Positions 5,300 to 36,135 of a DNA stretch of 64,000 nucleotides are shown here, piece by piece. A program made the translations under genes and the position numbers. Below the pieces are notes generated by a model. That model saw nothing but the letters and a program-made list of their open reading frames with translations. It had not been told where the DNA came from and did not search any database. Origin of the DNA: Bacilli bacterium (GTDB lineage: Bacteria > Bacillota_I > Bacilli_A > RFN20 > CAG-826); NCBI GenBank assembly GCA_017477255.1, contig JAFUXB010000002.1:182474-246473 (forward strand), given 5' to 3'. Each line of letters opens with the position of its first letter. Positions within the stretch are counted from its first letter, which is position 1.

Positions 5300-5920
5300 C
5301 TATTTAAATTTTTTTAGTATCTCGTTTATCCAACTACTGTCAGAGGACTCAAATTTATTCAAAAACATTAAAAAATTTGTGCTAGGTATATCTTTTATGT
5401 TACTAGAAATTTTCGATAAATTATTTTTAAATAAATCAAGAGAGTTATAATTTATTTTGTTTATTAACTGGTCGATTTGTTCATTTTTTGCAGAATAGTT
5501 TTTAATACCAGTTAATTGTTCTACTATTTTAGCGTTTGTTTTTTTGCCTACATTTTTCAATTTAACTTCACCAAAATGAGATAAAATAATTTGTAGTGTA
5601 ACCGGATTAGAATAGATAAACACTTCTAAAGAATCTTTTTTATTTTTAAAAAAATATTCACCAAATGAATTCAAAAAACTTAAAAATTGAGAACTATTAT
5701 TATCTCCATCACAAAAAACTAAAATCAAATCATAATATCCTTTTTGGAACTCATATTGATACCTAGCAAAAATTTTTCCATTTCCCTTTACATTTATAGC
5801 TTCAGCAAAATTATAGACTTCTTTATTTATGTTTGGAAAAGACAAAATTTTATCAATATAGGGTTTTTCTTCGTTTCCCTCAGCTAAAATTAGTATATTT
5901 CTCCTCCTTGTTTCACTCAT
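5300..5920 (-). CDS. RloB-like (Toprim-like, DUF4276/RloB family) protein, partner of the upstream AAA ATPase
   Basis: 206 aa. N-terminus RRRNILILAEGNEEKPYIDKI resembles the RloB consensus ILIVCEGEKTE. Overlaps the ATPase gene by 8 nt, indicating an operon. Confidence 0.55.
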   Translation of the reverse strand: MSETRRRNILILAEGNEEKPYIDKILSFPNINKEVYNFAEAINVKGNGKIFARYQYEFQKGYYDLILVFCDGDNNSSQFLSFLNSFGEYFFKNKKDSLEVFIYSNPVTLQIILSHFGEVKLKNVGKKTNAKIVEQLTGIKNYSAKNEQIDQLINKINYNSLDLFKNNLSKISSNIKDIPSTNFLMFLNKFESSDSSWINEILKKFK

Positions 5921-7762: not shown

Positions 7763-10700
7763 TTAAGCTACTTCATAGTTATCATTAATAAATTGTTTAA
7801 TAACTTCAATAAGATAATCTAATGTAAAATATCCTTTTCCAATTGGAACTGCTAAATATTCTCCACCCCACCATAAATATTGATCATAAGTAACTAAGTC
7901 TTTGACTAAATTGTAATCTAATGGTCCATATTTTTCTAAATCTTGTTCCATTTTGATAGGGTCATATTTAAATTCTGGAGTAACTTCAAACCAAACATGT
8001 TCATGTAATGTTGGTTCAACAGTTAAAATATTATTTGCTAAATATTGATAATCATACATTGTGTCAATTTCATAATATTCAGTATCTTTATTTTCAACAT
8101 ATGCATCAACAACTCGTTTATATCCTATTGTTGATGTGCCAATATCTGAAAGCAATTTTTTACCTATAAATGAACTATAATTACTAGAATCAATTGTTAC
8201 ATAATCTAATAGTTCTGCATCAAAGAATGATTGTTTCCAAATAGCTTCAACTTTTGATCCATCATCAAATACTACAGTTATAACGTCAGCATTTTGCATA
8301 GTGCCGCTCTCATACCAAATAATTGGCCTATTAACAAATGCACCCTCTTTAAAGCTCCAAGTTTTAACAAGTTCTCCTAACTTAACGTCCTTAATTGCTT
8401 TATAAGAACCGTCTGCCATCGTTACTAAAGTATTTCCAGTAACGCATACACCAGAATTATGCATTATATTAAAATCACAACTATATTCCGTATTATTAAT
8501 GTCTGTTACTTTACATCTCAATACACAAGCATCAGGTTTCTGATTAGTGCGTCCATCAAAATGAATTTTTGTACTTCGTGAACCATCATCATCAATAGTT
8601 GTTTTATTTGCAACCTTTGTTCCAGAATAATCAACCATATATTCTCTTTCTCCTGTTGGACTATAAAAAGTCCATTGAACTTGTGAAATTTGACCATTTG
8701 ATGGCTCCCATTTTAAACTATAAGTAATTGTTGTGTCTGTACTTGTAACTTCTTCGTGATAAGACCAATTTTGTGCAACTGTAATTCCGCTGACTCCATC
8801 ATGTTCACTTGATGTTCCGACAACTGTTTTTGAAGATTTGTTAGTACTACTAGTAATCCAAACCGATGTAACACCGACTAAGCTATCATCTGGAATTACT
8901 TCAGTATTATATGTACCAAAAACTTCACTATGATATGAAGATGTTGCAGTAATAACAACTTGCCCTAAATTAACACCAGTAACTTTGCCTGTTTCATCTA
9001 CAGTTGCAATTGATGTATTGCTTGAAGACCAAATTACGTCCTTATTATAAGCTTTTTCAACATCAATCAAGTTAGCTTTTAATTGAATACTATGATTTAT
9101 ATATAAAGGATCTTTACCATTATCTAATTTCCCAGTAGTACTCTCTACAGTTATAGATTGTACATCAAATTCATTAATACCATTATTGTTAGATGATATA
9201 CTAGGCAAACTATTTATTACACAAAATACTACATTACTAGCATTATTAATGTATGATCTATAAGCATACCTACTAGATGTGCCAAAAACATTGTTGTTAC
9301 CTTTAAAGACATTAACATTATAAATGTTATTTAATAATTCTAATTGAGCATTAGTCACAGAATCGACATGGAGAACTTTTTGAACTCCATTTATTTGCCA
9401 TTGTTCTCCATTGTTAATTACATTTAACTTTGGTTTATTTGGGTTTGGAAAATCGTTTGAATTAAAAAATGTATTCATTCCTATAAGGATTTTCTTTGAA
9501 TTAATCTTTTCTAATGACGATATCGAAAGTTGCTCTCTTATTATTAAGTAATCTTTAATAACAAAAGGCGCGCTTCTTACATCTTGATTCCATGGTTCAT
9601 TGCTCTCTACGATATCTGACGACGAATAAATAATGTTTGCTGAATCGTTGCAATATACATTTCCACCAATTTTTTGCATGGTAATCTTTCCACCATCCTC
9701 AACGATACAATTTGCATTATTTTTAACAGGATAATGAGCTCCACAACTCCATTTTGATGTTGGTCTCTCTCCACTGCTGTTATCAATGAATGTGCTATAT
9801 ACCGTCAATTCTGATCCGTTTAAATCCACGTTATTAGAAACAGCCAAAGATGCTTCAGGTAACAATTTTATTTTTTGATTTAATGTAGAAAATGTTGCTC
9901 TACCACTTTGGTTTGAATTTCTAAGCAAACTAATATTCATTTTATATGAAACAGGGAAAAAACCATTTGCTGTACTTAAAGTCTTTTCAACACCACTAAT
10001 TTTAATCTTAAAGCTAAATGTATTAAGAGAAAAACCACCATAAAATTTTAAATTCATTATTTTTTTATCTTTGTCATATTTTGCTTCCAAATATGAATAA
10101 GTAGAATTGGTAAGTTTAACTAAAGCTGCATTCCCGTTGGATATTATCAAAGAATCATTATTTGCAATAACTTCATCAATTGTTCCAATAATAGGAATTC
10201 CAGTTTGATACACGTATACATTAGAGCACCCATATAATTTAGCATTATATCTAAAGTATGAAGTGCAAAAAATATTTCTAAACTCAATTTGATTAAATGG
10301 TGGAACGCCATATGTATTATTTGCTTCTTCCATACCACTTGCAACAGAAAAACCTCTATAATCGCAAACTACTAAAGGCATATATACTGTTCCATTTGCA
10401 AAATCTATATAACTATTATTATTTTTTACATCTTCTTCTATATAACCATAACAATGTGTTATTGCAGTACTTGAATTTTGGATTATTGCTGCTCCATGTT
10501 TTAATAAAAAACGAGAATACGAAAAACCAGTATAACTAATTAATGAGGAGTTTTGGTTTGTTCCAGAATAAAGATAACCACTGATTACAAGAGTACCATT
10601 ATTAATTAATGTTTTTCCACTCTCTATTTCTACTGTAGTTCTTAAATAATTCGTTGAATGATTAATAGCATCTTTATCGGTACTTCCGAGGTTTCTGCTA

Positions 10701-11140
10701 TCTTTCCACATTGATTTAATGTAAGTTTCAAGTGTTTCCTGATTATTAACACTGTCAATATTATTTTTATCTGTTGGCAAAATTAAAGTAACGCCTTGTT
10801 TAATTTCACAATTATCTTTTATTTTATATGTAACGGAATCTACAGAAATTTTATTATTTACTGAATGATAATTTTGTTTTTTTGGTGGTATTGTAACAAC
10901 AATATCACCACTATTAGCACTTTTTAAAGCTCCTTCAATAGTTGGAAAATATATTTTGTTAGATCCAGCAATATAAGCTACAGGCTCCTGAACGCTGCTT
11001 GTATATGTTTCATTAGTACTATTAGCTGTATCATTTTGATTATCTCCAGCATTCCAACTAGCATAAGAAACTTTAGGCATTAATCCTAAAGAAATAAATG
11101 CAAACATAAAAAATGCTAAAAGTTTTTTAAACCACTTCAT
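7763..11140 (-). CDS. giant secreted multidomain protein 1 (ASW-type SipW-cognate-like signal peptide; Big_2; C-terminal Hint/BIL autoprocessing domain)
   Basis: 1125 aa. N-terminus MKWFKKLLAFFMFAFISLGLMPKVSYASWNAGDN. Big_2 block IQLKANLIDVEKAYNKDVIWSSSNTSIATVDETGKVTGVNLGQVVITATS. Hint block A CVTGNTLVTMADGSYKAIKDVKLGELV. The conserved C-terminal tail is shared with 20554..24099. Start overlaps the stop of 11140..11757 (TAATG). RBS AAGGAG. Confidence 0.85.
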   Translation of the reverse strand: MKWFKKLLAFFMFAFISLGLMPKVSYASWNAGDNQNDTANSTNETYTSSVQEPVAYIAGSNKIYFPTIEGALKSANSGDIVVTIPPKKQNYHSVNNKISVDSVTYKIKDNCEIKQGVTLILPTDKNNIDSVNNQETLETYIKSMWKDSRNLGSTDKDAINHSTNYLRTTVEIESGKTLINNGTLVISGYLYSGTNQNSSLISYTGFSYSRFLLKHGAAIIQNSSTAITHCYGYIEEDVKNNNSYIDFANGTVYMPLVVCDYRGFSVASGMEEANNTYGVPPFNQIEFRNIFCTSYFRYNAKLYGCSNVYVYQTGIPIIGTIDEVIANNDSLIISNGNAALVKLTNSTYSYLEAKYDKDKKIMNLKFYGGFSLNTFSFKIKISGVEKTLSTANGFFPVSYKMNISLLRNSNQSGRATFSTLNQKIKLLPEASLAVSNNVDLNGSELTVYSTFIDNSSGERPTSKWSCGAHYPVKNNANCIVEDGGKITMQKIGGNVYCNDSANIIYSSSDIVESNEPWNQDVRSAPFVIKDYLIIREQLSISSLEKINSKKILIGMNTFFNSNDFPNPNKPKLNVINNGEQWQINGVQKVLHVDSVTNAQLELLNNIYNVNVFKGNNNVFGTSSRYAYRSYINNASNVVFCVINSLPSISSNNNGINEFDVQSITVESTTGKLDNGKDPLYINHSIQLKANLIDVEKAYNKDVIWSSSNTSIATVDETGKVTGVNLGQVVITATSSYHSEVFGTYNTEVIPDDSLVGVTSVWITSSTNKSSKTVVGTSSEHDGVSGITVAQNWSYHEEVTSTDTTITYSLKWEPSNGQISQVQWTFYSPTGEREYMVDYSGTKVANKTTIDDDGSRSTKIHFDGRTNQKPDACVLRCKVTDINNTEYSCDFNIMHNSGVCVTGNTLVTMADGSYKAIKDVKLGELVKTWSFKEGAFVNRPIIWYESGTMQNADVITVVFDDGSKVEAIWKQSFFDAELLDYVTIDSSNYSSFIGKKLLSDIGTSTIGYKRVVDAYVENKDTEYYEIDTMYDYQYLANNILTVEPTLHEHVWFEVTPEFKYDPIKMEQDLEKYGPLDYNLVKDLVTYDQYLWWGGEYLAVPIGKGYFTLDYLIEVIKQFINDNYEVA

Positions 11141-11757
11141 TATGCATTCTCCTTAGGGGTAAATGTAATATTAAAATTAGCAGAGGCTAAATTAGGAAAA
11201 CTTGATAAAGATCCAGTCCATTTTAAATTTAGACTAAAATCAAAGCTAAAATCAGCATCCGTATTTGTACATGTAATAACAAATGATGTTGTAATTGCTT
11301 CTCCATCTACTGGATCAGTATCATTAACGCTAAAATTTGTACTAGTTAATGACATTGAGCTGGATGAAAAACCATTAGGATTTAATCCATTTGGTAAAGC
11401 AGTTGATAAACTAACATCTAATTTGAAAGATTTTGTGTTTCTATAGCTTGTAAAGCATGATTTTGCATTCGCTGTATTAACTAAGCATGTGCCAGTTAAA
11501 TCAACGTTATCAGCGTAAATTCCATCATTAACAAAGCCATATCCAGTTGCATATTCAAAATTTCCTAATGAAGAAATTGTAATTACATCAAGAGCTTCGC
11601 CAGTTCCTCCTGTAATTACATCTCCAACACTTAAATCAACAGTCATATTATTAGTTGCCTGTGTAGCTACTGCCCACGTTGAAAAACCAAGTCCTACTAA
11701 GCTAATAATAGAAACTGGACATAAAACAACAAGTAACTTTCTTCCTATCTTTTTCAT
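11140..11757 (-). CDS. TasA/camelysin-like secreted protein 1 with SipW-cognate-type signal peptide
   Basis: 205 aa. N-terminus MKKIGRKLLVVLCPVSIISLVGLGFSTWAVATQ aligns to the B. subtilis TasA signal region (LALVGGGTWAAFND). The mature part starts TVDLSVG, compare TasA SGTLDLS. Translationally coupled to the giant gene. Confidence 0.6.
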   Translation of the reverse strand: MKKIGRKLLVVLCPVSIISLVGLGFSTWAVATQATNNMTVDLSVGDVITGGTGEALDVITISSLGNFEYATGYGFVNDGIYADNVDLTGTCLVNTANAKSCFTSYRNTKSFKLDVSLSTALPNGLNPNGFSSSSMSLTSTNFSVNDTDPVDGEAITTSFVITCTNTDADFSFDFSLNLKWTGSLSSFPNLASANFNITFTPKENA

Positions 11758-11860: not shown

Positions 11861-11870
11861 TTATATAATA

Positions 11871-11889
11871 GAGAGAGAGAGAGAGAGAG
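11871..11889. repeat. (GA)9.5 dinucleotide microsatellite
   Basis: gagagagagagagagagag, located about 115 bp upstream of the operon start codon at 11757. Confidence 0.9.
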
Positions 11890-12095
11890 TCAAGCACTTT
11901 CGAAAAAGAGTGCTAATTTCTTCGATTACTTCTACTATTTATTTTTTCTATAAAAAAAGATTATTAGAACTTTAAATTGTTTAATAATCTTTAAGCTAAT
12001 AAATGATTACTACTTATTGTTTTTGTTAATAATCTGAGAAATCTAAAGTGCACTTTATTTTACTCGGATTTTAAACATTTATAATACCCAATTGT

Positions 12096-12190
12096 GACTT
12101 ACTGAAAGATTTTGCTAAAATCAATAAAATTTTTCAGTATACTGAAAGATTTTTCAATATTTATAAAAATTGTTCAGTATAGTGAAAGAT
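12096..12190. promoter_or_regulatory. three about 40-bp-spaced repeats of ACTGAAAGATTTT including a perfect 14-bp palindrome TTCAGTATACTGAA (putative operator array)
   Basis: gacttACTGAAAGATTTT (12096-12113). ttTTCAGTATACTGAAAGATTTTT (12131-12155), with the palindrome at 12133-12146. tgTTCAGTATAGTGAAAGATTTTTT (12171-12196), with a near-palindrome at 12173-12186. Confidence 0.55.
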
Positions 12191-12214
12191 TTTTTAATCA
12201 AATTAGCAAAATAA

Positions 12215-23500: not shown

Positions 23501-24099
23501 TTTGCATATTCTGTAATGTAGCCATAAACAGTTAATTTCGATCCGTTCTTGCAAAGTACTTGGGAATTATCTTTTAATGTTAATTGTGCATAATTACCAT
23601 TAGTAGCACCCCCATACAATCCTGCTCCAGCACCTGCTCCAATAGAACCACCTACAATCATTGTCCCATAATTAGTTATTTTGACCCCATCATCAAGTGT
23701 AACTTTTAATTTCATATAGGTGGCATCATCTTGTTCTTTAAAAACGTTACTAGATGTAGGAGAATTTATATATGTTTCATTTTCATAAGGCAAAATTAAA
23801 CTAACACCACTATTAATAGTAAAACTATTTTTAACAATTGGATTACTTCCAGGAATGACATAAACCGTTTTATTTCCAACATTGTTTGCTGAATTTATAG
23901 CGGCTTCTAGAGATGAAAAATAAGTAGAATCATAATAAGCAACCGGATTTGATTCTTGTGCGCTTACCTTATTACTACTTACTTCATTAATTTTTCTTAT
24001 TTCATCTGAAACCCATGAAGCGCTACCAGTTTTAATTGTAGAAAAAATACACCCAAAAAAAATTAAAAAACCAATAAATATGTTCTTAAATTTTTTCAT
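20554..24099 (-). CDS. giant secreted multidomain protein 2 (paralog of 7763..11140; Gly-rich/beta-helix region, three Flg_new repeats, C-terminal Hint/BIL domain)
   Basis: 1181 aa. N-terminus MKKFKNIFIGFLIFFGCIFSTIKTGSASWVSDE. The N-terminal block PVAYYDSTYFSSLEAAINSANNVG is homologous to giant 1. Flg_new repeats YNFDGWFLDENC...LYAKW, LIFDGWYIDS...LYGRWY and KYFDGWYLDSS...LYANW. Hint block A GGCFSEDTLINTLNGLKKAKDLIKEDKVLTF. ATGA overlap with 24096..24761. Confidence 0.85.
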   Translation of the reverse strand: MKKFKNIFIGFLIFFGCIFSTIKTGSASWVSDEIRKINEVSSNKVSAQESNPVAYYDSTYFSSLEAAINSANNVGNKTVYVIPGSNPIVKNSFTINSGVSLILPYENETYINSPTSSNVFKEQDDATYMKLKVTLDDGVKITNYGTMIVGGSIGAGAGAGLYGGATNGNYAQLTLKDNSQVLCKNGSKLTVYGYITEYAKHQGDYDEVADRTTWPKIILESGSILNAPFIIHDFRGGSVTYGLNSDKSSKNVIFFNEYEICNVRPLVNIQYGASLTVDTWLYASSDSHSAKDIKIIGNSSSHLFQMSSGAIIDFKYNYANNNSSNYSNRYLNFMDIRVRGNCKINALTLNVAGTSLDTSSFRFSLSYSFHLYFFNGTITCSNKLKLMKGCRVFIDETATLNVDDLISYENYKDLSTDSHTAYPNTASEPILINNGVLSAQKLAGLVISTNEGAQTTATNTSITSYEHLNHSGSTIFTSVTYTTINGSLKLKLLKNGLISDVFENVGPGTYFSYVDTESNYGRFSNAGTISYDCNGSSTTFSPKTITIGNGGYTINNDDIANTPVREHYNFDGWFLDENCTISALSNVVYSSVVLYAKWSPINYSISYNFNVDFEGNQISGQSNDSRNPTQFNVESNLNLYPAKHNSLIFDGWYIDSLYQTKITQINSNIFAYLSSPYNLNLYGRWYPADTETFTITYVNDNTDEGCTCISSEDILSVNVDKLVVPDLSGKNSNTSYGKYFDGWYLDSSFNNKYTSNSQITGSCELYANWLNKNEITIGIAGNNLVQTIRYLNKDAIFTVPDAANYGITLPTGYEMVWQVTGGALDGHTLKTGQTGVCLSTSRGQSITVVGEQTPISYNLTINVGSNETATYSIKRGNTIIVNDTTIAASSTENVSQSINVNDVITIKVSAESDYTAGNIAVTNLTGNASPYTVSGTGNATITVANASKNSGGCFSEDTLINTLNGLKKAKDLIKEDKVLTFNHFEGKFEYSNILALIDHGNDYNTKINVIFDDGSNFEIINAHGVLMNDTKKYESINRNSYNSFINREVVCENNGSIRIKKIVDIEVSEEYCHAYSILTDYNVNCVTDNVLSITETCVDITCNYFEMDNSYKYDEKLMEEDINKYGLYSYEEWKDYMSLDFFEKINGKYCNIVVQKGITTKEHIINVMKYVANLFKTGQAR

Positions 24100-24761
24100 A
24101 TAACAGATTCCGCTCCTAAAGTTACTTTAAATCCGACTCCGTTTGAAACATATTTATATGTATTATAAAATGTCGAAAAATTTACAGGTGAAAGAGCAGC
24201 TAAAATAGAAAAATTAACATTTTCATCAGTCAAATCAGAAACACTTGTGTTATATGAAATTATTATTTCAGATCCATTTTCAACAGTTATACCATCATTT
24301 ATTTGTGTCAAATTATGTAATGCGCTGATATTCGTTTTGTTTGCATTAACAGTAACAATATTATTTAGATTCAAAGTATTATTGCCATCAAATCCATTGA
24401 TTTTCAAAATAATCCTCATTTCATTTGATAATAATAAAGATTTGATTCCTCTTTTGGCTAAATTTAAATTAATTGATGAATTTACGGTTATATACCCACC
24501 ATAAGGGTCAATTATCGAACCTTCTTGAGAATACGTTCCATCACTCATTTCAAAGCCATATTGAGACATCTTAAAAGTTTGTAATGTTACTGATCCAAAT
24601 GCATCAATATTATCTGCAGTTTCGACATTACCAACTGATAAGTTTACTGAAATATTAGTACTTACTTGCTTAGCAACAGCCCATGTTGAAAAACCTAACC
24701 CGATTAAGCTAACCATTGAAACGGGAAGCAAAATAGCCAATAACTTCTTATTTATCTTCAT
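24096..24761 (-). CDS. TasA/camelysin-like secreted protein 2 with SipW-cognate-type signal peptide
   Basis: 221 aa. N-terminus MKINKKLLAILLPVSMVSLIGLGFSTWAVAKQVSTNISVNLSVGNV is a paralog of 11140..11757. RBS GGTAAGAG. Confidence 0.6.
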   Translation of the reverse strand: MKINKKLLAILLPVSMVSLIGLGFSTWAVAKQVSTNISVNLSVGNVETADNIDAFGSVTLQTFKMSQYGFEMSDGTYSQEGSIIDPYGGYITVNSSINLNLAKRGIKSLLLSNEMRIILKINGFDGNNTLNLNNIVTVNANKTNISALHNLTQINDGITVENGSEIIISYNTSVSDLTDENVNFSILAALSPVNFSTFYNTYKYVSNGVGFKVTLGAESVI

Positions 24762-24957: not shown

Positions 24958-26055
24958 TTACCTTTTAACATAATTTGGACACACTGTTGAAATTGCTTCG
25001 CTTAAAGGACAACTATATCGTTTATAACATGTAAGGCATTGTTCTCTAGCTTTTTGTGTTTCTATTTGTCTTCTTAATTCTGCAGTAAGTTTATTATCAT
25101 CATCAATCATAATAGCAATGGCTTCTTTTAATGTATCTGCTCTTGCTGCTTCTAATATTTCAATAAGTTTTTCTACTTCATCAATATAAACTTGAGGATA
25201 ATAAATTGGTAATGAAGCTACATAATTGTTTAATTCTTCATTTAATACTTTTTGCTTTTCAAGTTTTTCATGAATCTCTTTTTCTCTAGCTAATTCATAC
25301 ATTTTATGAGCTTTTTTAACACATTTATCATATTCTTTTTCAATTTGCTCATAAATTATTATCTTTTCTTCATAATCTGCTAGATCTTTATTATATTTGT
25401 CCAAATCTTTTTCATATTGTATTAAATCTTGCTCATATTGAATTCTTCTTTTTTCAACTCTTTCTTTTTCTATTTTTGTTTTTTCTTCTATTTCTTTAAT
25501 AATTTCAGATCTTCTTTTTTCTTTTGCTATAGCTCTTTTAATTGCTTTAAATAATATTATTGAAAGTAAGGTACCTAAACCTAAAGCTAGCACTACTATT
25601 CCAACAATAAGTGTTGTTTGTCCTCTTTGCATGGATCCTTCATGATATGTTTCACCATATTCTGCAATTTCTTTTTTAGAGTTATTAACAACAATACCAC
25701 CAATAATAAGAATTAAAATTCCTAAAATAGCTAAAAATATTGTTATTCCATTAAAAACTTTATATGGCATATATTTATCAGAAAAACTCGCATGTTCTGA
25801 ACCATCATAAGCTTTTTCCCGACATTTTAACTCTTCTTCTACTGTAGGAACATTAATTGAATCACTAAAATATGGTTTATTAGGCTCTTTTGGTTTTTTT
25901 GGTTTTATATTATTTATATGTTTTTCTTCAATTTCTTTATCTATAAAATCTTCTTCTTTTGCAGTTTTTTTATCTAATATTTCATTTATTTTCTTATTCT
26001 TTTCATTTTTAGCTTTTTTAATTAAATAAAGCTCGCTTAATAATTCTTTATCCAT
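24958..26055 (-). CDS. coiled-coil membrane protein with Cys-rich C-terminus, unknown function
   Basis: 365 aa. Two TM helices (ITIFLAILGILILIIGGIVV and TLIVGIVVLALGLGTLLSIILF). A long KE-rich heptad region follows. The C-terminus is CLTCYKRYSCPLSEAISTVCPNY. Confidence 0.75.
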   Translation of the reverse strand: MDKELLSELYLIKKAKNEKNKKINEILDKKTAKEEDFIDKEIEEKHINNIKPKKPKEPNKPYFSDSINVPTVEEELKCREKAYDGSEHASFSDKYMPYKVFNGITIFLAILGILILIIGGIVVNNSKKEIAEYGETYHEGSMQRGQTTLIVGIVVLALGLGTLLSIILFKAIKRAIAKEKRRSEIIKEIEEKTKIEKERVEKRRIQYEQDLIQYEKDLDKYNKDLADYEEKIIIYEQIEKEYDKCVKKAHKMYELAREKEIHEKLEKQKVLNEELNNYVASLPIYYPQVYIDEVEKLIEILEAARADTLKEAIAIMIDDDNKLTAELRRQIETQKAREQCLTCYKRYSCPLSEAISTVCPNYVKR

Positions 26056-26083
26056 TATTATTTCCTCTTTACATATATTTTAA

Positions 26084-26111
26084 CAAAAAAGTTAGCTTTA
26101 GGGGCTAACTT
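26084..26111 (-). terminator. rho-independent terminator of 26169..26852
   Basis: aaaaaAGTTAGCtttagggGCTAACTTtc. Confidence 0.6.
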
Positions 26112-26168
26112 TCTTAAAAACAAGAATTAAAATCCTAATACACTTTTTATAAATTTTAGCTAAATATT

Positions 26169-26852
26169 TTAAATAATAATATCACCGTCAATACAATGTA
26201 CTGTTTTTATATTGGATTCATTTAAAAAGTTTGGATTATTTTGTAATAAATTATTAAATTCTTTTTTAGTGCCTTTATATTCTAAATCACACAATAATTC
26301 ACATTTTTTAAAAATAGAATTTCCGATTATTTCTACAGAATTTGATAAAACAACCGATTTCAAATTATTACAATTTTTAAAAGCTAATTTATCAATACTG
26401 TTTATTTTGTCGCTTATTATTATTTTTTCATAATTAGTTCCCGAATAAATTTCACTTGGGATTTCTGTTATATCAGAATCAGAAAAATCCAACACATTAT
26501 TAACTACTTTTTCAATCTTCTTTGCCATAGCTTGATCTTCGACAATCTTTTTTTCTTCATCTTTATCATCAGATTCAACCATATATTGAAGTAAAACATT
26601 GGTATTATCAAAATAATTAGCTATAGTTTTGAACAATATTCCAGTAATTAATGTGGAAATAGCAACAGGCAAGAAATAAGCAAGTGAGACTATCCCAACA
26701 AAAGCAATTAAAACAAAAGCCAGGATAAAAGAAATAACAGAAATAAATAGCACAATGATTGCATAAATATTAACTGTTGCTGCTTTTTTAATGTTTTGAT
26801 TTAAAATTTCATTTTTTTCTTTTTTGTTCATAATTAATTCACCCTCTCCCAA
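26169..26852 (-). CDS. membrane protein, unknown function
   Basis: 227 aa. Two N-terminal TM helices. 4-nt overlap region with the upstream gene 26834..27973. Confidence 0.7.
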   Translation of the reverse strand: MGEGELIMNKKEKNEILNQNIKKAATVNIYAIIVLFISVISFILAFVLIAFVGIVSLAYFLPVAISTLITGILFKTIANYFDNTNVLLQYMVESDDKDEEKKIVEDQAMAKKIEKVVNNVLDFSDSDITEIPSEIYSGTNYEKIIISDKINSIDKLAFKNCNNLKSVVLSNSVEIIGNSIFKKCELLCDLEYKGTKKEFNNLLQNNPNFLNESNIKTVHCIDGDIII

Positions 26853-27973
26853 TTAGCAAAAACTTCAATATCTTTATAAATTGGAGTTAAATTGTCAAGT
26901 TTACCAATATTTGGATTTACTTCTTCTTTTGTATACCATCCTAAAAATTCATAAGTAGTTTCATCAAATTTAGGATAATCTAATTCATAACCCATTGAAT
27001 AAAAATTCCATCCTTCATAAATTTCATATTCTTTAGTTAATAATGTATTATCATCTTCAAAATAAATATTAGACAATTCTTCATTAATTGATGATAAATT
27101 TAAATTTAATGTAACTTTAAATGAATTTTCAGGAGTAGGAACTTTACTTAAATCACTGATTAATTCCCAACTATTTGATCCAGTTTTTTCATAAATTTTA
27201 AAATTAACTGAATCAAAATAAAAATCACCTACATAACCTAAACTAGATTCAGGGGAGCTTTCTCCACTATACCAAATTGATGTTCTATTATATCTTTGTT
27301 CAATTGTATCTCCACTAGTTAAAGTAAAAATAAGTACGTTTTCGCCAGTATTTTCATCAATCTCTACTAAAACACTAGTAATTGTATTCATTTTTAATAG
27401 TGGAATAGATATAAATAAATTTTCTTTATTAGTATCTAAATATAAATTTAATATGTTTTGACTTTCTTCTTCAATAACTTCAACTGCTTTAATATAAGCA
27501 CCAACATTACCTTTAGGAAGAGCGATTTTATAATCTTCTTTGTTATTAAAAGAAATAATCATATATTTTTGATCACTAATTTCTTCATAAGTAATTCCTG
27601 TAATTAAAGTTCCATCTTTTCCTTGTTTGCCGTTAATTAAAGGTAAAGTTAATTCAATAAATTCAGTTTCTTCTTCGTTAAGATAAGCATTAATAATAAC
27701 TAAATTATTAGTAGAATCAACAATTGGAGAAGAAAAATGATCAATTCCTAGTCCTTTATTTAAACTAAAAGTATAAGTAACTTCTTCTTCACCATTAAGT
27801 GTAACTTTAATAGTTTTAGTTAAAGTTTCTTCATCTATTTCTTCACTAGTACTAGTAATAACATATTTATATTCACCTAAAAATCCACATGAAGAAAAAG
27901 TAATACTACCTAAAAGTAAAAAAGTTGATAAAAATAACTTAGATTTAAACACTTTTTTCATCATTTTACCCAT
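26834..27973 (-). CDS. lipoprotein with C-terminal Listeria-Bacteroides (Flg_new) repeat
   Basis: 379 aa. Lipobox FSSCG. C-terminus YEFLGWYTKEEVNPNIGKLDNLTPIYKDIEVFANWE. Paralog of 27961..29103. Confidence 0.8.
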   Translation of the reverse strand: MGKMMKKVFKSKLFLSTFLLLGSITFSSCGFLGEYKYVITSTSEEIDEETLTKTIKVTLNGEEEVTYTFSLNKGLGIDHFSSPIVDSTNNLVIINAYLNEEETEFIELTLPLINGKQGKDGTLITGITYEEISDQKYMIISFNNKEDYKIALPKGNVGAYIKAVEVIEEESQNILNLYLDTNKENLFISIPLLKMNTITSVLVEIDENTGENVLIFTLTSGDTIEQRYNRTSIWYSGESSPESSLGYVGDFYFDSVNFKIYEKTGSNSWELISDLSKVPTPENSFKVTLNLNLSSINEELSNIYFEDDNTLLTKEYEIYEGWNFYSMGYELDYPKFDETTYEFLGWYTKEEVNPNIGKLDNLTPIYKDIEVFANWERVN

Positions 27974-29103
27974 CTAGCCCATAAATTAGTATCACTATTA
28001 ACTACTGTTAAATCAGTAAATGATCCTAAATTTACATTATATTTTCTTGAAGTATACCATCCAGCAAACGAATATCCATTAGTACATGTAGGAAGAGGTA
28101 ATTCATAACCTTCACTATAAAAATTATATCCAGCTTTAATTTCATATGAACTTTCTTCACCATAGTTAAAACTTGCTGTAGCATCACTAGGTTCATTTAA
28201 ATTAAACGATACTGTATAAGTTTTATTAACTGCTGGGGTTGATCCTAAGTTTGCTACTACTTTCCATTTAGTGCCTGTAGCACTTACTTTTTGATAAATA
28301 ATAAATTTATTAGTATTAAAATAAAAATCTCCAATATTTCCAAAATCTGTGATATTTTCACTATTTGGATCATAAGTTCCTGTAAACCATTTAGTTACTG
28401 TTCCTATATCCATTGGTTCACTAGATTCGCCATTATTATAATAAATTACCATTTGATAAGAATTAGATATATCATCAAAAATAACTTCGACATAATCTAT
28501 TGATTTAGCTGCAGGAATTTGAATTGTTCCTAAAGGATGTTCTTTATTAATATCTCTATAAAAAGTAACTACTGTTACGCCATTTGGTAAAGTTTCATAA
28601 TCAATTGCAACTACTCCATCTCCGTCCTCTCCTTTTTGTAAAGGGAAAGAAATTGATGGAGTTTCATCATCAAATTCGATAATAATAATTGGATTACCTT
28701 CTTCATCAACTCCTTCAGTTAATGATTTAATTCCTTTACCATTTTTCCCATCTTCACCTTTAATTAAAGGCATTAAAATAGTTTTTTTAGTTTGATGATC
28801 ATCGTTATAAGTAATAATGAGTTCTACTTCATTAGTAGCTTCATTAAATTTACCTACTTCAATATTTTTAATTCCAGTTCCATCAGATAAAGTAAAAGTA
28901 TATGTAGGAAGAGTTGAGTTAGCACCAAATTCAATTGTTATTTTTTGTCCAATTACATTATTATTTTCATCTTTTATATCTTCATGAACAAAACTAGAAA
29001 TTGTATATTCATCACTTCCAAAAAATGAACATGATGAAGCAAAACTTCCTAAAAGTAAAACACTAGATAAAGCTAAAACTTTACTAAATTTAAACTTTCT
29101 CAT
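27961..29103 (-). CDS. lipoprotein with C-terminal Flg_new repeat (paralog)
   Basis: 380 aa. Lipobox FASSCS. C-terminus YSFAGWYTSRKYNVNLGSFTDLTVVNSDTNLWARW. Confidence 0.8.
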   Translation of the reverse strand: MRKFKFSKVLALSSVLLLGSFASSCSFFGSDEYTISSFVHEDIKDENNNVIGQKITIEFGANSTLPTYTFTLSDGTGIKNIEVGKFNEATNEVELIITYNDDHQTKKTILMPLIKGEDGKNGKGIKSLTEGVDEEGNPIIIIEFDDETPSISFPLQKGEDGDGVVAIDYETLPNGVTVVTFYRDINKEHPLGTIQIPAAKSIDYVEVIFDDISNSYQMVIYYNNGESSEPMDIGTVTKWFTGTYDPNSENITDFGNIGDFYFNTNKFIIYQKVSATGTKWKVVANLGSTPAVNKTYTVSFNLNEPSDATASFNYGEESSYEIKAGYNFYSEGYELPLPTCTNGYSFAGWYTSRKYNVNLGSFTDLTVVNSDTNLWARWVK

Positions 29104-29105
29104 AA

Positions 29106-31535
29106 CTAACTCCTTCCTCTAACAATTAAATCTTCTCTTGATGGTGATTCTTTATATAAATATGGTTTATCAGTATATGTACCATTTGTAATAAAATTAA
29201 ATGCATTAAATCCTGCTGCGACTGATACACATTTTTGTAATATATCAATATATCTATTTCCTGAATTGCCATTCATTGAGTTTTCCATAATATTTACATG
29301 TAAATCTTCGCCAAAATCGATATTATTTAATGATGAACTATCTACAGTAGATAAATTAATTCCTCCACCATAATAAGCAACTTCACTATTTAAATATGAT
29401 TTTCCTTCTTCTTTGTAGATATATTTTTTATCTGCTGCTAAGCTAGAAACTAACTTTTTCATTGGGAAATAATAATCAATTGGGATTCGATCCATTTCAA
29501 AATCATCTCCAAGTACTGATTTAGCAAATTCTCCAATTCTTTCTTCAATAAGACATGAAGCATCTAAATCTTCAATATCTTTAAAATCATAAAATTTAGT
29601 ATCACCAACTAAATTTAATTTTGATGGTCTCATTGTTGCGCCTACGTTGTTAGGGAGTGCAAAATCTAGACCAAATCTATTAAATGTAGCTTTGATGTAA
29701 CTTGGCATACCATTATATAAGAAACATCCATTAAAATAAGTATCAAAAGCTATAGCAAATATTCCAGATTGATTAAAATAAGTGTCTTTTACTGTAATTT
29801 CTTGACCAAAATCTACTTCATCTCCTTTTAAATAAGGATTATCAAGTTGAGATTGGAAAGTATTAAGCATACTAATAGTTTCTTCGCTATCTCCTTGACC
29901 TTGAATAAATTCATTAAATATTAAAGAATCAGCACTAATTCCTTCTTTTTTATCTAAGAAATCTCCAAGTCTTCCATCAAAAGTTTCACCATCAAAACTA
30001 TAATTTACATATTGTCTTAAATCAGTTTCTTTATATTCGTTACATCCAATTTTAAGTAAAAATTCTCTACTATTTTGAAGTAATGAATTTTCAAGTAAGA
30101 AATTATCACTACTATAAACTCTCACTGCGTTTCTTGTGTTTTTAACTGTAACATTTTTTAAAGTTACATCTTTTGCATTAACATCAATTCCTGTTCCAAC
30201 AAATTCTAAATTATAAATATTATTAGCGTAGTTATCACAGTTAATTACATTTAAATCATTAACCGTTACTCCTTCTTTATCAATATAAATTAAAGAATTA
30301 TCTTGTCCAAAAGCTTTAACAATTGGAGCTTCAAAATCTCCAATTGATACAAATGTTAAAGGTCCTGTAAATAAATCACCCTTTGTACTATCAGGAGTTA
30401 ATATTCCAGTATATTGATTAATTGAACCATTTATTGGGTAAGTTAAATTTCTACCATTAACAGTAAATCCATTTCCATAAAAATCTTTTTGGATATGAAT
30501 TCCACTGATTACTTCGTTTTTATTTGTATTTTCACCATAAATTTGTTTAATAAATTTATCGTTATATGTAGTTTTAAAACGATATACTTCATTATTAAAA
30601 CTAAATGAATTTTTATTTAAATTACCAAAAAGTCTTGTTGATTTATTCTTTAATTCATCAGTTCTATTTCCGTTATTATAAACATAAGTGTTTTCTAAAG
30701 ATTCAAGATTTACTTGTAAAACACCTATTTCTCCACTTCCTCTATTTTTATTAGTAATAGCAAGTAAGTCATTATATGAATAAACATTACATCCATCTTT
30801 AACTATATTTAAATCAAGATCTTTTTTAAGTTCAATTTCATTAGTTAATTGTGCACTAAATGAAATTTTAGCTTCACCACTATTTTTAATAGTTAAAGCA
30901 CTATTTTTTTCATCATAATTTAATGTAGTTGATGTAATATTCTTCACTTTTAAAGGTAGTCCTTCTGGTAAAGTTTTAACTTTTAAATTGATATTTGCAT
31001 TATTTTTCCTGTAACTACTAGGATCGGTATAAACTAAATCATATTGACCAAAATATCTTTTTCCTGTAATTGATTCACTACTTGAAGGATATTCGAAGTT
31101 GATAATAATTGTTCCTTCATTATAAATTTCGGCATTAAATGTAGCGCTGGCTGTTCCTTTTTTATTTCTACATCCAACAGTTACAGTTCCTTCATTTTTA
31201 GCAAATAAATACCATTTTTCTTCTTCTTTTTCGACTACTTCAGCAATGTTTGTGTCTCCATTAATAAACCAAATAAGTTCATTATCACTAGCTAGTTCTC
31301 TACTTCTATCATAAGTTAAATTACATCTAAGTTCAGTATAAGGATTATCATTCATTTCATTTAACATTTGAAATCCTGTATATTCATCAAAAATACCATC
31401 AAAATCTATTTTTTGAATATCATTAGGTAATTCTCTTATTCTTTGTTTAATAAGGGCAAAACTTAAAAGACTCACAATAAATGGAGCAATAAGTAAGATA
31501 TAAAGTGTTTTTTTAGATCCGGATTTTGCCATCAT
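29106..31535 (-). CDS. membrane-anchored surface protein with Big_2 domain and right-handed parallel beta-helix repeats
   Basis: 809 aa. N-terminal TM helix. Big_2 block IWFINGDTNIAEVVEKEEEKWYLFAKNEGTVTVGCRN. Beta-helix repeats NVTVKNTRNAVRVYSSDNFLLENSLLQNSREF. Confidence 0.8.
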   Translation of the reverse strand: MMAKSGSKKTLYILLIAPFIVSLLSFALIKQRIRELPNDIQKIDFDGIFDEYTGFQMLNEMNDNPYTELRCNLTYDRSRELASDNELIWFINGDTNIAEVVEKEEEKWYLFAKNEGTVTVGCRNKKGTASATFNAEIYNEGTIIINFEYPSSSESITGKRYFGQYDLVYTDPSSYRKNNANINLKVKTLPEGLPLKVKNITSTTLNYDEKNSALTIKNSGEAKISFSAQLTNEIELKKDLDLNIVKDGCNVYSYNDLLAITNKNRGSGEIGVLQVNLESLENTYVYNNGNRTDELKNKSTRLFGNLNKNSFSFNNEVYRFKTTYNDKFIKQIYGENTNKNEVISGIHIQKDFYGNGFTVNGRNLTYPINGSINQYTGILTPDSTKGDLFTGPLTFVSIGDFEAPIVKAFGQDNSLIYIDKEGVTVNDLNVINCDNYANNIYNLEFVGTGIDVNAKDVTLKNVTVKNTRNAVRVYSSDNFLLENSLLQNSREFLLKIGCNEYKETDLRQYVNYSFDGETFDGRLGDFLDKKEGISADSLIFNEFIQGQGDSEETISMLNTFQSQLDNPYLKGDEVDFGQEITVKDTYFNQSGIFAIAFDTYFNGCFLYNGMPSYIKATFNRFGLDFALPNNVGATMRPSKLNLVGDTKFYDFKDIEDLDASCLIEERIGEFAKSVLGDDFEMDRIPIDYYFPMKKLVSSLAADKKYIYKEEGKSYLNSEVAYYGGGINLSTVDSSSLNNIDFGEDLHVNIMENSMNGNSGNRYIDILQKCVSVAAGFNAFNFITNGTYTDKPYLYKESPSREDLIVRGRS

Positions 31536-33154
31536 TAAATCCTCATTTTGATAAAGCTATTATTAATTATCTTTTTAAAAGGTAAAATAAGAGCAACGTT
31601 TGTAATTACATAAAGTAAAATTACAATAATATACATTAAGGCTTTTGAAACTTGAGCATACATAAATAAGAATATAAGTCCAAAAGTAATAAGAGGTAAA
31701 ACAATTGATAAAACTGTCGATAAAAACTCAATATTTGATTTTTTATTTTCATTTAATTTAGCGAGATCTATATATACTCCTGCTACACTAAGTGATAAAA
31801 GAAGCATTAATCCAGCTAGTAACGAAATAAAGAAAGCAAGTACTGAAATTTGTTTTCCTATAGCAAGTACTAAAAGAGTTAAAATTAAACTAAATGAAGA
31901 AAAAGCAAATGGAATAATCATTTTACAAATAGTTTGTTTTAATGGGCTAATTGGAATATATTTAACTATTTGAATTGCTTTTTGTTCTCTAGAATAAGCA
32001 TCCATTGTAGAACTTGCAATAATTGAAGAAAATAAAAGAATTAAAGTAATATTAAGTGCATTTATAAATTCACCATAATAATGTAAAAACATTTGTTGGT
32101 TTGTATAAAATAAAGTATTAAGTGAATTAATAACAACAAATGCTAAAAATGGTTGCATTATAAGTAAAGAAGTATAACTAAATACATAATTTGAATTTCT
32201 AAAAATAAGTACAAATTCTTTTTTTAAGAGGGTTTTAGTAGGGTTTTGAAGTAAAATCTTACTAGATTTCATAGTTTTAGATTCATTAGAACTAAATTCA
32301 CCTTTTAAGAAATTAGTATATGATTCAGTTGCTATAAAATATCCTAAAACGAGCGCTATAACACTACTTCCTACACTAATCATTATGTCTTGTAAAACAT
32401 TTACTTTTCCTAGTCCTAAATCCATAAGTTGATAAGTAGGAACAAAGAATTTAGTAGCTTTATGAAGCTTTTCTACAAATGCTCCACTAATTAAAGTGTC
32501 AAGTTTAGCATCATTTACAAGTGTCATAAATAAATTAAGTACGTAGTTATATAAAATACACAAAGTAATAACTAAAATACTTCCTAAAGCAATTTGTAAA
32601 ATTGGTTTAGGTTTAATAAAATTGTAAGCTTTATTATATAAAGGCAAGATAATAAGCGTTAAACCAGTTGATATAAAACTAGAAAAGAATGGGTATAACA
32701 CACTAAAAACATAAAATTTAGTAGTAATTCCTGATTCAAATCCTTGTTTAATTCCAAATGTAAAAAGTAATGGAATAGTAATAATTGCACTAGTTAAAAC
32801 GTTATTTAAATAAGTAAATAAAGCTTTTGAAAATATAATTTCATCATTATTAATTGGAAGATGTAACATAATTGATGAATCAATTCGTTTATAAAAGATT
32901 TCTCGAGCTCTTAAAGTCGTAGAAATCATAGAAACAATTAACATGACAAATAATATTAAAATTAAGAAATCATAAGATCCAAACGAAGAAAATTCTTTTA
33001 ATTTTGGTTCAAGTTTAGAAAAAATAAATACTTCTAAAAAAACTATAAGTCCATAGACTAAAACTCGACCAACCCATCTTAAAATGGTTTTGACTTTACT
33101 TGATTCATAAGTCTGAGACTCTTTAAATTCTTTATGAAGTAATTCAAGTAACAT
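31535..33154 (-). CDS. polytopic ABC-type permease (partner of the REC-ABC ATPase)
   Basis: 539 aa with at least 10 hydrophobic helices. Start overlaps the stop of 33154..34317, and the stop overlaps the start of 29106..31535. Confidence 0.7.
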   Translation of the reverse strand: MLLELLHKEFKESQTYESSKVKTILRWVGRVLVYGLIVFLEVFIFSKLEPKLKEFSSFGSYDFLILILFVMLIVSMISTTLRAREIFYKRIDSSIMLHLPINNDEIIFSKALFTYLNNVLTSAIITIPLLFTFGIKQGFESGITTKFYVFSVLYPFFSSFISTGLTLIILPLYNKAYNFIKPKPILQIALGSILVITLCILYNYVLNLFMTLVNDAKLDTLISGAFVEKLHKATKFFVPTYQLMDLGLGKVNVLQDIMISVGSSVIALVLGYFIATESYTNFLKGEFSSNESKTMKSSKILLQNPTKTLLKKEFVLIFRNSNYVFSYTSLLIMQPFLAFVVINSLNTLFYTNQQMFLHYYGEFINALNITLILLFSSIIASSTMDAYSREQKAIQIVKYIPISPLKQTICKMIIPFAFSSFSLILTLLVLAIGKQISVLAFFISLLAGLMLLLSLSVAGVYIDLAKLNENKKSNIEFLSTVLSIVLPLITFGLIFLFMYAQVSKALMYIIVILLYVITNVALILPFKKIINNSFIKMRI

Positions 33155-34317
33155 TAAAGATTTTCTACTCCTTCTCCATAAACTTTAAAGAAAACACGTT
33201 TAAGGTCTTTTCTTTTATAAGGTTCTTTTTTAAAATCAAGTTCAACTGCTATTTTTCCTTCATTAACAATTGCAACTTTATCACAAATTGCACTAACTAG
33301 TTCAATATTGTGACTTGTAATAAATATTGTATTTCCAGCTTTTGCATAGTCTCTAAGCATTCTAAGTAAAACTTCATAAACCATGATATCTAGACCTACC
33401 GTAGGTTCATCTAAAACCCATAATTTAGGATTATGAATTAAAGAAGCCATTAAGCATACTTTTTGCTTCATACCATGTGAATATTCACTTATTTTTCTAT
33501 TTAAATCAGCTTCTGGTAAATCAAATTTACGTTTTAAGAAGTCATAGTTAGCATCAAATGAGCTTTGAATCATTCCATAACTACTTCCAATAAATTCTAA
33601 AAATTCTTTACCAGTCATAAGTTCATATGCTGTTGGTTCACTTGGGACATATCCAAATAATTTTTTAGTAGCAACTGGATCATCTTTAATTGATTGTCCA
33701 AATATTTTAATATCTCCGCTATTAAAATCTTTTAGTCCTACGATAGCATCAATTGTAGTTGATTTACCGACACCGTTTTTTCCAACAAAGCCATATATCT
33801 CACCTTTTTTAACATATAAAGAGATACCTTTAAGAACTTCTTTTTTACCATAAGATTTATAAACATCATCGATTTCAAGAGCGATTTCATCGAGCTTTTT
33901 AGTAATATGATTTGCTCTATAATGTTCAATAATTCTCATGATTCTAGCTAAAATTACTTCGCTAGATTCAAAAGGTTTTTTAATAAAATCCATTGCGCCA
34001 AGTTTTAAACACTCGACTTCTTTTTCTTTATCACTAGTTAAAACAATTACAGGGATTTCACTAATTTCTGGATTTTCTTTTTTAAACTTTAAAAAAGCAA
34101 TTCCATCCATTTTTGGCATGATTAAATCAAGTAAAACAAGGTCAATATCTTCAGCTTCTTTTTTTAAGATAGCAAGGCCTTCATCGCCATCTTTTGCAAA
34201 AAGACATTCACACTCATCTTTAATGATGTTAGCTAAAATCTCGCGATTGATTTCTTCATCATCAATTATGAGTACTTTACTAGCTTTTTCCTTTAATAAA
34301 CTTGAATCATTAGCCAT
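33154..34317 (-). CDS. response-regulator receiver (REC) domain fused to an ABC transporter ATP-binding domain
   Basis: 387 aa. REC residues KVLIIDDEEI, DLVLLDLIMPKMDG, VIVLTSDKE and KLGAMDFIKKPF. ABC Walker A GKNGVGKST, degenerate signature YSHGMKQKV, Walker B LWVLDEPTVGLD and H-loop FITSHNIE. Confidence 0.8.
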   Translation of the reverse strand: MANDSSLLKEKASKVLIIDDEEINREILANIIKDECECLFAKDGDEGLAILKKEAEDIDLVLLDLIMPKMDGIAFLKFKKENPEISEIPVIVLTSDKEKEVECLKLGAMDFIKKPFESSEVILARIMRIIEHYRANHITKKLDEIALEIDDVYKSYGKKEVLKGISLYVKKGEIYGFVGKNGVGKSTTIDAIVGLKDFNSGDIKIFGQSIKDDPVATKKLFGYVPSEPTAYELMTGKEFLEFIGSSYGMIQSSFDANYDFLKRKFDLPEADLNRKISEYSHGMKQKVCLMASLIHNPKLWVLDEPTVGLDIMVYEVLLRMLRDYAKAGNTIFITSHNIELVSAICDKVAIVNEGKIAVELDFKKEPYKRKDLKRVFFKVYGEGVENL

Positions 34318-34335
34318 ATTTTCTCCTAAAAATAA

Positions 34336-34749
34336 CTATGCTGTAGTTGTTGATCTAGTAACACTAGCCACTACACCAAATGAAATTAGAGTACCATAAA
34401 CAACATAAAAAATTACGACAGCAATAAATAAAACTGTTCCCGCAAGTCCTAAAAAATAGCCAATTTTGCCATATATATGCTTATCTTTAGTCTTTTTACC
34501 TATACTCATAGCTAATATATTAAAAACTATTCCGATAACACCGAAATCTAAAGCTAAACCAATAACACCTAAAACTAAACTGACTAATGCATTTTGTTGC
34601 TCTTCTTTACTTATAGCTTTAGTTTCATTGTTTATAGCTTCAATTTCTTTTTTACCGAGCACATGTTCGAACTTTTTGCTACCACAATCAGGACAAACTC
34701 TAATGTCTTCATCTTTGGTTTCATATCCACAATAACTACATTTTTTCAT
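34336..34749 (-). CDS. small membrane protein with N-terminal zinc ribbon
   Basis: 137 aa. CSYCGYETKDEDIRVCPDCGS followed by three TM helices. Confidence 0.65.
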   Translation of the reverse strand: MKKCSYCGYETKDEDIRVCPDCGSKKFEHVLGKKEIEAINNETKAISKEEQQNALVSLVLGVIGLALDFGVIGIVFNILAMSIGKKTKDKHIYGKIGYFLGLAGTVLFIAVVIFYVVYGTLISFGVVASVTRSTTTA

Positions 34750-34751
34750 AA

Positions 34752-36134: not shown

Positions 36135-36135
36135 A

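Follow-up and report, generated by a model that had tools for sequence, protein, structure and literature searches.

What is the function of a gene pair in which a small protein with an export signal is followed, with overlapping codons, by a protein of more than 1100 amino acids (aa) that carries a similar signal? Such a pair is found twice in the window, a 64,000-nt stretch of contig JAFUXB010000002.1 (GCA_017477255.1, positions 182,474-246,473) from a Bacilli bacterium. All features are numbered within the window. The explanation proposed here, which we hold to be about evenly poised between right and wrong, is that the products of the pair are secreted surface proteins, made in a fixed proportion, which cooperate within a larger surface-assembly locus of Mollicutes-related gut Bacilli. 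The four genes are the following.

7763..11140, minus strand: giant protein 1, an open reading frame (ORF) of 1125 aa with a signal region, N-domain, Big_2 domain, Hint domain, and helical tail
11140..11757, minus strand: small protein 1, an ORF of 205 aa
20554..24099, minus strand: giant protein 2, an ORF of 1181 aa with an N-domain, Flg_new repeats, Hint domain, and helical tail
24096..24761, minus strand: small protein 2, an ORF of 221 aa, a paralogue with the same GFSTW motif as small protein 1

The overlaps and the upstream Shine-Dalgarno-like sites support translational coupling in both pairs. The window has a G+C content of 24-33%, every gene of interest lies on the minus strand, and the long ORFs are unbroken under translation table 11. 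In pair 1 the sequence TAATG at 11138-11142 joins the stop codon of the small gene (TAA, 11142-11140) to the start codon of the giant gene (ATG, 11140-11138), and AAGGAG at 11154-11149 lies 8 nt 5' of that start. Pair 2 has an ATGA overlap, with AGGAG 13 nt upstream. A preliminary description of this DNA had reported both ORFs of pair 1, their overlap, the AAGGAG, and a second pair at 20554-24761, and all of these are present exactly as it placed them; its claim that the two genes are co-translated is supported by the TAATG overlap and the AAGGAG. The small proteins are 46% identical, with the similarity confined to the first 80 residues. The giants can be aligned over the N-terminal 500 aa or so (23%) and over the Hint domain plus tail (31%), while their middle parts differ, giant 1 having Big_2 there and giant 2 having Flg_new.

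The small gene and the giant gene form a conserved unit. Conservation was surveyed in 24 loci from a species-representative genome collection, 19 of which have sequence upstream of the giant. At least 17 of these have an ORF of about 180-250 aa that ends between 20 nt inside and 14 nt before the giant start. The offset is mostly -4 or -1, and most of these small ORFs carry both the signal motif described below and a match to the small-family profile. Since the adjacency recurs in these other genomes it is not due to chance, and the earlier view of a conserved two-gene unit holds. Relatives of the N-domain that lack the Hint tail are found in four loci (L013 9950-12616, L021 10001-12547, L014 4282-6702, and L020 13162-15747). 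Those of L013 and L021 retain the coupled small gene, showing that the partner of the small gene is the N-domain and not the Hint domain. Giant 1 has 46 full-length relatives at E<=1e-30, in metagenome-assembled genomes (MAGs) with labels such as Candidatus Enteromonas, Onthovivens, and Acholeplasmatales. A sequence identical to the small protein is on record in a MAG labelled 'Bacilli bacterium'. Four of the locus-bearing contigs (L014, L018, L019, and L022) are titled Hallerella, Oscillospiraceae, Lachnospiraceae, and Bacteroides uniformis, probably as a result of mis-binning in the MAGs. L008 (500-12724) encodes a 4074-aa protein that has the N-domain and the Hint domain plus tail, with a very long insert between them.

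Small proteins and giants share a signal at the N-terminus, in which G-[FY]-[SA]-x-W comes after a hydrophobic stretch. Across the window and the 24 loci the motif is found in 33 ORFs, all of which encode either small proteins (179-358 aa) or giants (806-1553 aa). Among the N-termini of 43 members of the giant family, 20 have the strict motif and 37 have [SAG]xW at the same place; examples are VGYSSWIV, IGFATWIV, and KGFSAWNS. The two giants of the window have degenerate forms, GSASW in giant 2 and SYASW in giant 1.

11054..11140, minus strand: signal region of giant 1 (residues 1-29), with the degenerate motif S-Y-A-S-W

The peptide VSYASWNAGDN, which the preliminary description had singled out as a tryptophan-containing signal, occupies residues 24-34 of giant 1, and the presence of the motif in both families bears this out. 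In small protein 1 the N-terminal hydrophobic helix ends in G24-F-S-T-W28 (nt 11674-11688). The only invariant residues in 16 relatives are G24, F25, and W28, at the end of the hydrophobic stretch. A HMMER scan of 1.84 billion representatives places 732 proteins in the small-protein family at E<=1e-3. The 150 listed among these are all 338 aa or shorter, typically 200-290 aa, and G[FY..]xxW is found in 140 of the best 148 representatives. The family consensus is '...SLVSVGF[AS][AST]W[VI]... GNIxVDxV'. The G-F might suggest a type IV pilin, and this was rejected because the hydrophobic stretch precedes the motif rather than following it.

As far as the data go, the small protein appears to be a pilin-like beta-sandwich with a free N-terminal strand. 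In small protein 1 a flexible, strand-prone segment (residues 31-58) separates the signal from the sandwich. The AlphaFold2 model, with a predicted local distance difference test (pLDDT) score of 80, has a helix at residues 5-30, disorder at 31-54, and a beta-sandwich at 59-202. Foldseek finds nothing for this model at E<=1e-3. The weak matches at the top of its list are rich in donor-strand pilins (PapA, FimG, FimA, and CanA), and TasA is absent from the top structural matches. The TasA superfamily takes in CanX-type proteins (bioRxiv 10.1101/2024.12.30.630787). The name 'TasA-like' given to the small protein is not established, since there is no sequence match, an hhalign probability near 1%, and no significant Foldseek match. 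The small proteins do not match Peptidase_M73/TasA (PF12389), and the alignment of the family to TasA (probability 1.1%) covers only the signal region, the N-terminal 43 columns. Four G-F-x-x-W proteins have no NCBIfam match to the SipW-cognate signal TIGR04088 at E<=0.1 or at E<=5. None of 94 family members matches any Pfam family, nor do the two small proteins of the window, and profile searches of the PDB with the family found nothing, though TasA structures have been solved (e.g., 8AUR).

Pair 2 lies at the tail of a conserved locus of about 21 kb that also encodes a signal peptidase.

37978..39198, minus strand: divergent SipW/SEC11-like signal peptidase I of 406 aa, with GSDSM (Ser111), VHRI (His167), and RGDK (Asp187)
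39235..40910, minus strand: two G-F-x-x-W proteins of 279 and 277 aa, immediately upstream of the peptidase gene
24958..37950, minus strand: genes between the peptidase and pair 2, most of which recur in order in L001, L010, L013, L014, L032, and L034

The product of 37978-39198 is predicted to be a divergent signal peptidase I of the endoplasmic reticulum (ER)/archaeal type. It matches TIGR02228 at 5e-9 (36 bits, with a cut-off of 52) and the SipW model at 2e-6, which is below the curated cut-off. It also matches human SEC11C at 2.4e-6, and this alignment runs through SGSM/SDSM, VHRV/VHRI, and KGD/RGD. With about twice the usual length, the peptidase has an additional membrane segment at its N-terminus, and its C-terminal third (37978-38460) is a Lys/Glu-rich tail of about 160 residues beyond the catalytic domain. 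A metagenome scan with the peptidase found one short, near-identical locus only.

The gene order runs from 41578 to 20554. It begins with a 174-aa membrane protein, the two G-F-x-x-W proteins, the peptidase, and a 604-aa protein with transmembrane segments and an AAA_5 domain. It continues with 460-aa and 137-aa proteins, a receiver-ABC ATPase, a permease, and an 809-aa anchored protein, and it ends with two lipoproteins, an LRR_5 protein, a 365-aa protein, small protein 2, and giant 2. The same order is found again, either complete or as overlapping parts, in L001, L010, L013, L014, L025, L032, and L034, so that pair 2 belongs to the same locus as the peptidase. Six other genomes have the peptidase, the G-F-x-x-W genes, and the small-giant pair joined in one conserved order, and two G-F-x-x-W genes followed by the peptidase are likewise found in L014, L025, L032, and L034. 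Where they are visible, the surroundings of the locus differ (e.g., in L034). One of the window's two lipoproteins is matched in other genomes, and the LRR_5 protein and the 137-, 379-, and 365-aa ORFs are rarely or never matched elsewhere. The preliminary description had linked the pair to SipW. That link is supported, as the conserved locus that contains pair 2 also codes for a SipW-type peptidase. Pair 1 is a dispersed second copy.

The giant combines a conserved N-terminal domain with a variable middle and a processing module at its C-terminus.

9221..10993, minus strand: N-domain of giant 1 (about residues 50-640), with conserved alignment columns; it always accompanies the small gene
8939..9067, minus strand: Big_2 Ig-like domain of giant 1 (best stretch, residues 692-734), Pfam E=5e-11
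8006..8446, minus strand: Hint domain of giant 1 (about residues 899-1045), with nucleophile Cys899, Gln970 at the block-B position, and no terminal His-Asn
7766..8005, minus strand: C-terminal extension of giant 1 (about residues 1046-1125), conserved, with four helices packed on the Hint domain

The N-domain looks beta-helix-like from its sequence, and it has no Pfam or PDB sequence match and no match to a carbohydrate-active or lyase family. The Big_2 domain claimed earlier is present in giant 1, and 41 of 43 relatives also match it. The giants have neither LPXTG nor a hydrophobic segment beyond the N-terminal one, and no sortase motif is found in the window; anchoring by a sortase was rejected for these reasons. 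Homology between the giant and the 809-aa protein of the locus was also rejected (hhalign probability 0.2%).

The Hint domain is identified by the family rather than by giant 1 by itself, which falls below the Pfam cut-off (19.3 bits against 29.7). A family profile matches BIL2 at 7e-8 and hedgehog at 1e-3 among PDB entries, and the fold is also confirmed by structure. The Hint peptide quoted in the preliminary description, CVTGNTLVTMADGSYKAIKDVKLGELV, is located at residues 899-925 of giant 1. Cys1 is present in all 43 aligned proteins. Block-B His, the residue that helps the N-S acyl shift, is found in 36 of the 43, including giant 2 (nucleophile Cys953, nt 21243), and it is replaced by Gln in seven, including giant 1 (Gln970, window 8231-8233). 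The Gln variant could be either a slower catalyst or a sign of a different mode of action. At its aligned end the domain reads S/T, I/M/V, P/E/T, G/P, without a terminal His-Asn. The Hint domain plus tail lies at the extreme C-terminus in every case, with a mean column identity of 45% and several invariant positions. The tail, four helices in about 80 residues, has no match to solved structures, Pfam, or toxin families, and a word-indexed search with the Hint plus tail profile found few matches, mostly fragments. Protein splicing by an intein was rejected, as there is no terminal Asn and a conserved helical tail stands where the C-extein would be. With an invariant Cys1 and no terminal Asn, the Hint domain can only turn the 898/899 peptide bond into a thioester. 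In hedgehog proteins the thioester is passed to cholesterol. In BIL2 it is transferred to a lysine, forming an isopeptide (PMC8616854). These precedents make thioester transfer chemically possible.

The proposed mechanism begins with export. Both proteins would be exported via Sec with a family-specific signal, the hydrophobic stretch plus G-[FY]-[SA]-x-W, which would be recognized, and probably cut near the Gly, by the SipW/SEC11-type peptidase of the locus. The small protein, modelled as an Ig-like beta-sandwich behind a flexible strand-forming segment as in donor-strand fiber subunits, would then dock to the N-domain of the giant, or link the giant to a fiber of the 277- and 279-aa G-F-x-x-W proteins, in either case perhaps by binding or polymerizing through its N-terminal strand. 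By analogy its part may be that of TapA serving TasA, and the earlier suggestion that it is a fiber or anchor presenting the giant is plausible. The giant would display an N-terminal, probably beta-helical head on a variable Ig-like or Flg_new spacer. The Hint domain and its 80-residue helical extension would act as a hedgehog-like module that converts the 898/899 bond to a thioester, and resolution of the thioester would detach a passenger of about 870 residues from the Hint tail. The nucleophile would be water at least, and possibly another, with hydrolysis the minimal reading. We think it quite unlikely that the thioester at 898 is instead resolved by a membrane lipid or by an amine of a partner G-F-x-x-W protein, leaving the passenger covalently anchored to the cell or fiber, in the manner of hedgehog Hog or Tetrahymena BIL2.

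Several points weigh against this explanation. In most of the small-giant pairs sampled the peptidase gene is more than 10 kb away, so the link between peptidase and pair rests on six loci plus the motif. Giant 1, with Gln in place of block-B His, may cleave poorly. In addition, G-[FY]-[SA]-x-W could be a membrane-interface anchor and not a cleavage signal. It is possible, though deserving well under even credence, that the signal stays uncleaved, with the motif at the membrane interface of a signal-anchor helix, the small protein as the membrane base for the giant, and the SipW-like peptidase a general and non-specific enzyme. The distance of the peptidase from most pairs fits this possibility, as does the AlphaFold2 model, which puts the motif at the end of one continuous helix (residues 5-30). 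A terminal Trp is typical of helices at membrane interfaces, and the giants have no other anchor, lacking both a second hydrophobic segment and LPXTG. However, most members have Gly at -1 and Ser, Ala, or Thr at -3, as would suit a signal-peptidase site, and in five independent loci the peptidase directly follows two G-F-x-x-W genes, much as sipW accompanies tasA and tapA.

The giant might also be a secreted beta-helix enzyme, acting for example on a polysaccharide, with the Hint tail as a self-removing pro-domain and the small protein as a secretion or folding chaperone. This is rather unlikely. Glycoside hydrolases and genes for sugar transport are abundant in the window, the start of the N-domain resembles that of many beta-helix proteins when the sequence is read, and removal of the Hint domain by hydrolysis is the minimal chemistry that the residues permit. 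On the other hand, the N-domain matches no carbohydrate-active or lyase family, and the conserved locus contains a peptidase, pilin-like proteins, lipoproteins, and an LRR protein rather than glycan enzymes. A further point against it is that the small protein has the same export signal as the giant and is thus itself extracellular. A polymorphic toxin, in which a pre-toxin Hint domain frees a C-terminal toxin and an adjacent gene confers immunity, is very improbable. The nearest sequence relatives of the giant Hint domain outside the family do bear PT-HINT (PF07591), but the 80-residue tail is conserved and matches no toxin family, and the two giants have different downstream neighbors, one being followed by an AbiL pair and the other by a lipoprotein. 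The PT-HINT toxin was therefore rejected, given the conserved tail and the lack of a conserved immunity gene. Likewise the tail that follows the Hint domain, being conserved and not polymorphic, makes the 'effector' role that the preliminary description offered for the giant unlikely.

The preferred explanation, cooperating surface proteins, includes a switch for pair 1, which has a repeat in its promoter.

11865..11893, minus strand: promoter-like site of pair 1, consisting of TTGACT, a 17-nt spacer made up entirely of CT repeat, and TATTAT (10 of 12 matches in a promoter scan)
12100..12198, no strand assigned: three operator-like sites with 40-nt spacing (TACTGAAAGATTTT), upstream of the pair 1 promoter

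Apart from the (CT)10 tract at 11870-11889, the window has no perfect dinucleotide repeat of 10 copies. In two assemblies from other samples the tract is (CT)11, with one single-nucleotide polymorphism in about 6 kb as the only further difference, and a fourth contig breaks within the tract. The occurrence of (CT)10 and (CT)11 in nearly identical DNA suggests phase variation, and slippage of the CT spacer would probably switch expression of this extra copy. Repeats in promoter spacers are known to cause phase variation of Haemophilus fimbriae, with (TA)n, and of Mycoplasma vlp genes, with poly(A). As in those systems, the repeat separates the -35 and -10 elements of a surface-protein operon and varies in length between samples. 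It differs in being a CT dinucleotide with a putative effect on expression, seen for pair 1 of this organism only. No repeat tracts were found upstream of orthologous pairs in other genomes. The sites at 12100-12198 look like putative regulator binding sites; at each of their two junctions stands the palindrome TTCAGTATACTGAA, which has one mismatch at the second. An (AT)10 tract in L014 (6957-6976) lies 50 nt upstream of G-F-x-x-W and SipW-like genes, and it may be a chance occurrence in AT-rich DNA or a second repeat-controlled promoter.

Other genes near the two pairs have features of defense or signaling proteins. Directly downstream of pair 1, and flanking it, is an AbiL-like abortive-infection pair (5300-7163; AbiLi 9e-61, AbiLii 3e-6), suggesting that pair 1 is in a variable island. 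Just upstream of the pair 1 regulatory region, 12259-14067 encodes a 602-aa protein that has numerous membrane segments and a coiled stretch rich in Lys and Glu. The protein matches no family, and of the fetched loci only near-identical assemblies contain it. Within the conserved locus, the 604-aa protein (34752-37950, with its partner) has four N-terminal membrane segments and an McrB-like AAA_5 domain, and it matches the PADLOC candidate PDC-M26A at 2.7e-35. This protein and its 460-aa zinc-ribbon partner always come right after the peptidase gene; they could be either a defense system or part of the surface locus. At 33154-34317 a single protein joins a response-regulator receiver domain (Response_reg 4e-23) to an ABC transporter ATPase (ABC_tran 2e-26), an unusual arrangement that is conserved in the locus.

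The system works like a tapA-sipW-tasA-type assembly joined to an autoprocessing tail of the Hog/BIL type, as judged by analogy. The tapA-sipW-tasA operon for biofilm fibers in Bacillus subtilis and the archaeal loci with AbpX/AbpA and a signal peptidase I, all of the TasA superfamily, also place a dedicated ER/archaeal-type peptidase beside secreted beta-sandwich proteins of about 200-280 aa. They share with it a special signal in which an aromatic residue lies close to the region of cleavage, as well as a flexible N-terminal strand ahead of the sandwich, and a minor subunit that serves a major one is a probable further parallel. In contrast to the TasA system, there is no Peptidase_M73 or TIGR04088 match, the motif is G-[FY]-[SA]-x-W, and TasA is not close in structure. 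Multi-domain giants of about 1100 aa bear the signal too and are coupled to the small subunit, and the locus also has an ABC transporter and a membrane AAA+ protein. After the Hint domain, an extra conserved region of about 80 aa stands where hedgehog Hog has its adduct-recognition region. The module differs from Hog in its bacterial host, in having a compact, charged helical extension with no detectable similarity to the sterol-recognition region, and in the Gln that replaces block-B His in seven family members, including giant 1. Bacterial intein-like (BIL) domains and Tetrahymena BIL2 lie between two exteins, whereas this Hint domain is C-terminal with only a helical tail after it. Literature searches turned up no description of this architecture, in agreement with the preliminary description, which had known of none, and public records call the proteins 'hypothetical' or 'Ig-like domain-containing'. 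Four families or regions of the system are unannotated, namely the small subunit, the N-domain of the giant, the tail after the Hint domain, and the signal motif.

The locus is a candidate answer to the question of how these bacteria display large proteins. Two uncultured orders with a relationship to Mycoplasmatales, RFN20 and ML615J-28, are predicted to have no sortases, and for some families of RFN20 a lack of peptidoglycan is predicted as well (PMC10868615). For uncultured gut Bacilli with reduced genomes, where sortases are predicted to be absent from several orders and cell walls from some families, the display of large adhesin-like proteins is a question. The locus may answer it with a private signal class, a dedicated signal peptidase of archaeal type, subunits that resemble pilins, and a large surface protein with self-processing by a hedgehog-type module. 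If the thioester goes to a lipid or a partner protein, the system would be the first described case of hedgehog-style anchoring in bacteria, and it would be a means of sortase-independent surface anchoring in Mollicutes-related Bacilli. Even if the reaction is self-cleavage only, the putatively phase-variable extra copy points to a surface structure that is exposed to the host or to phages.

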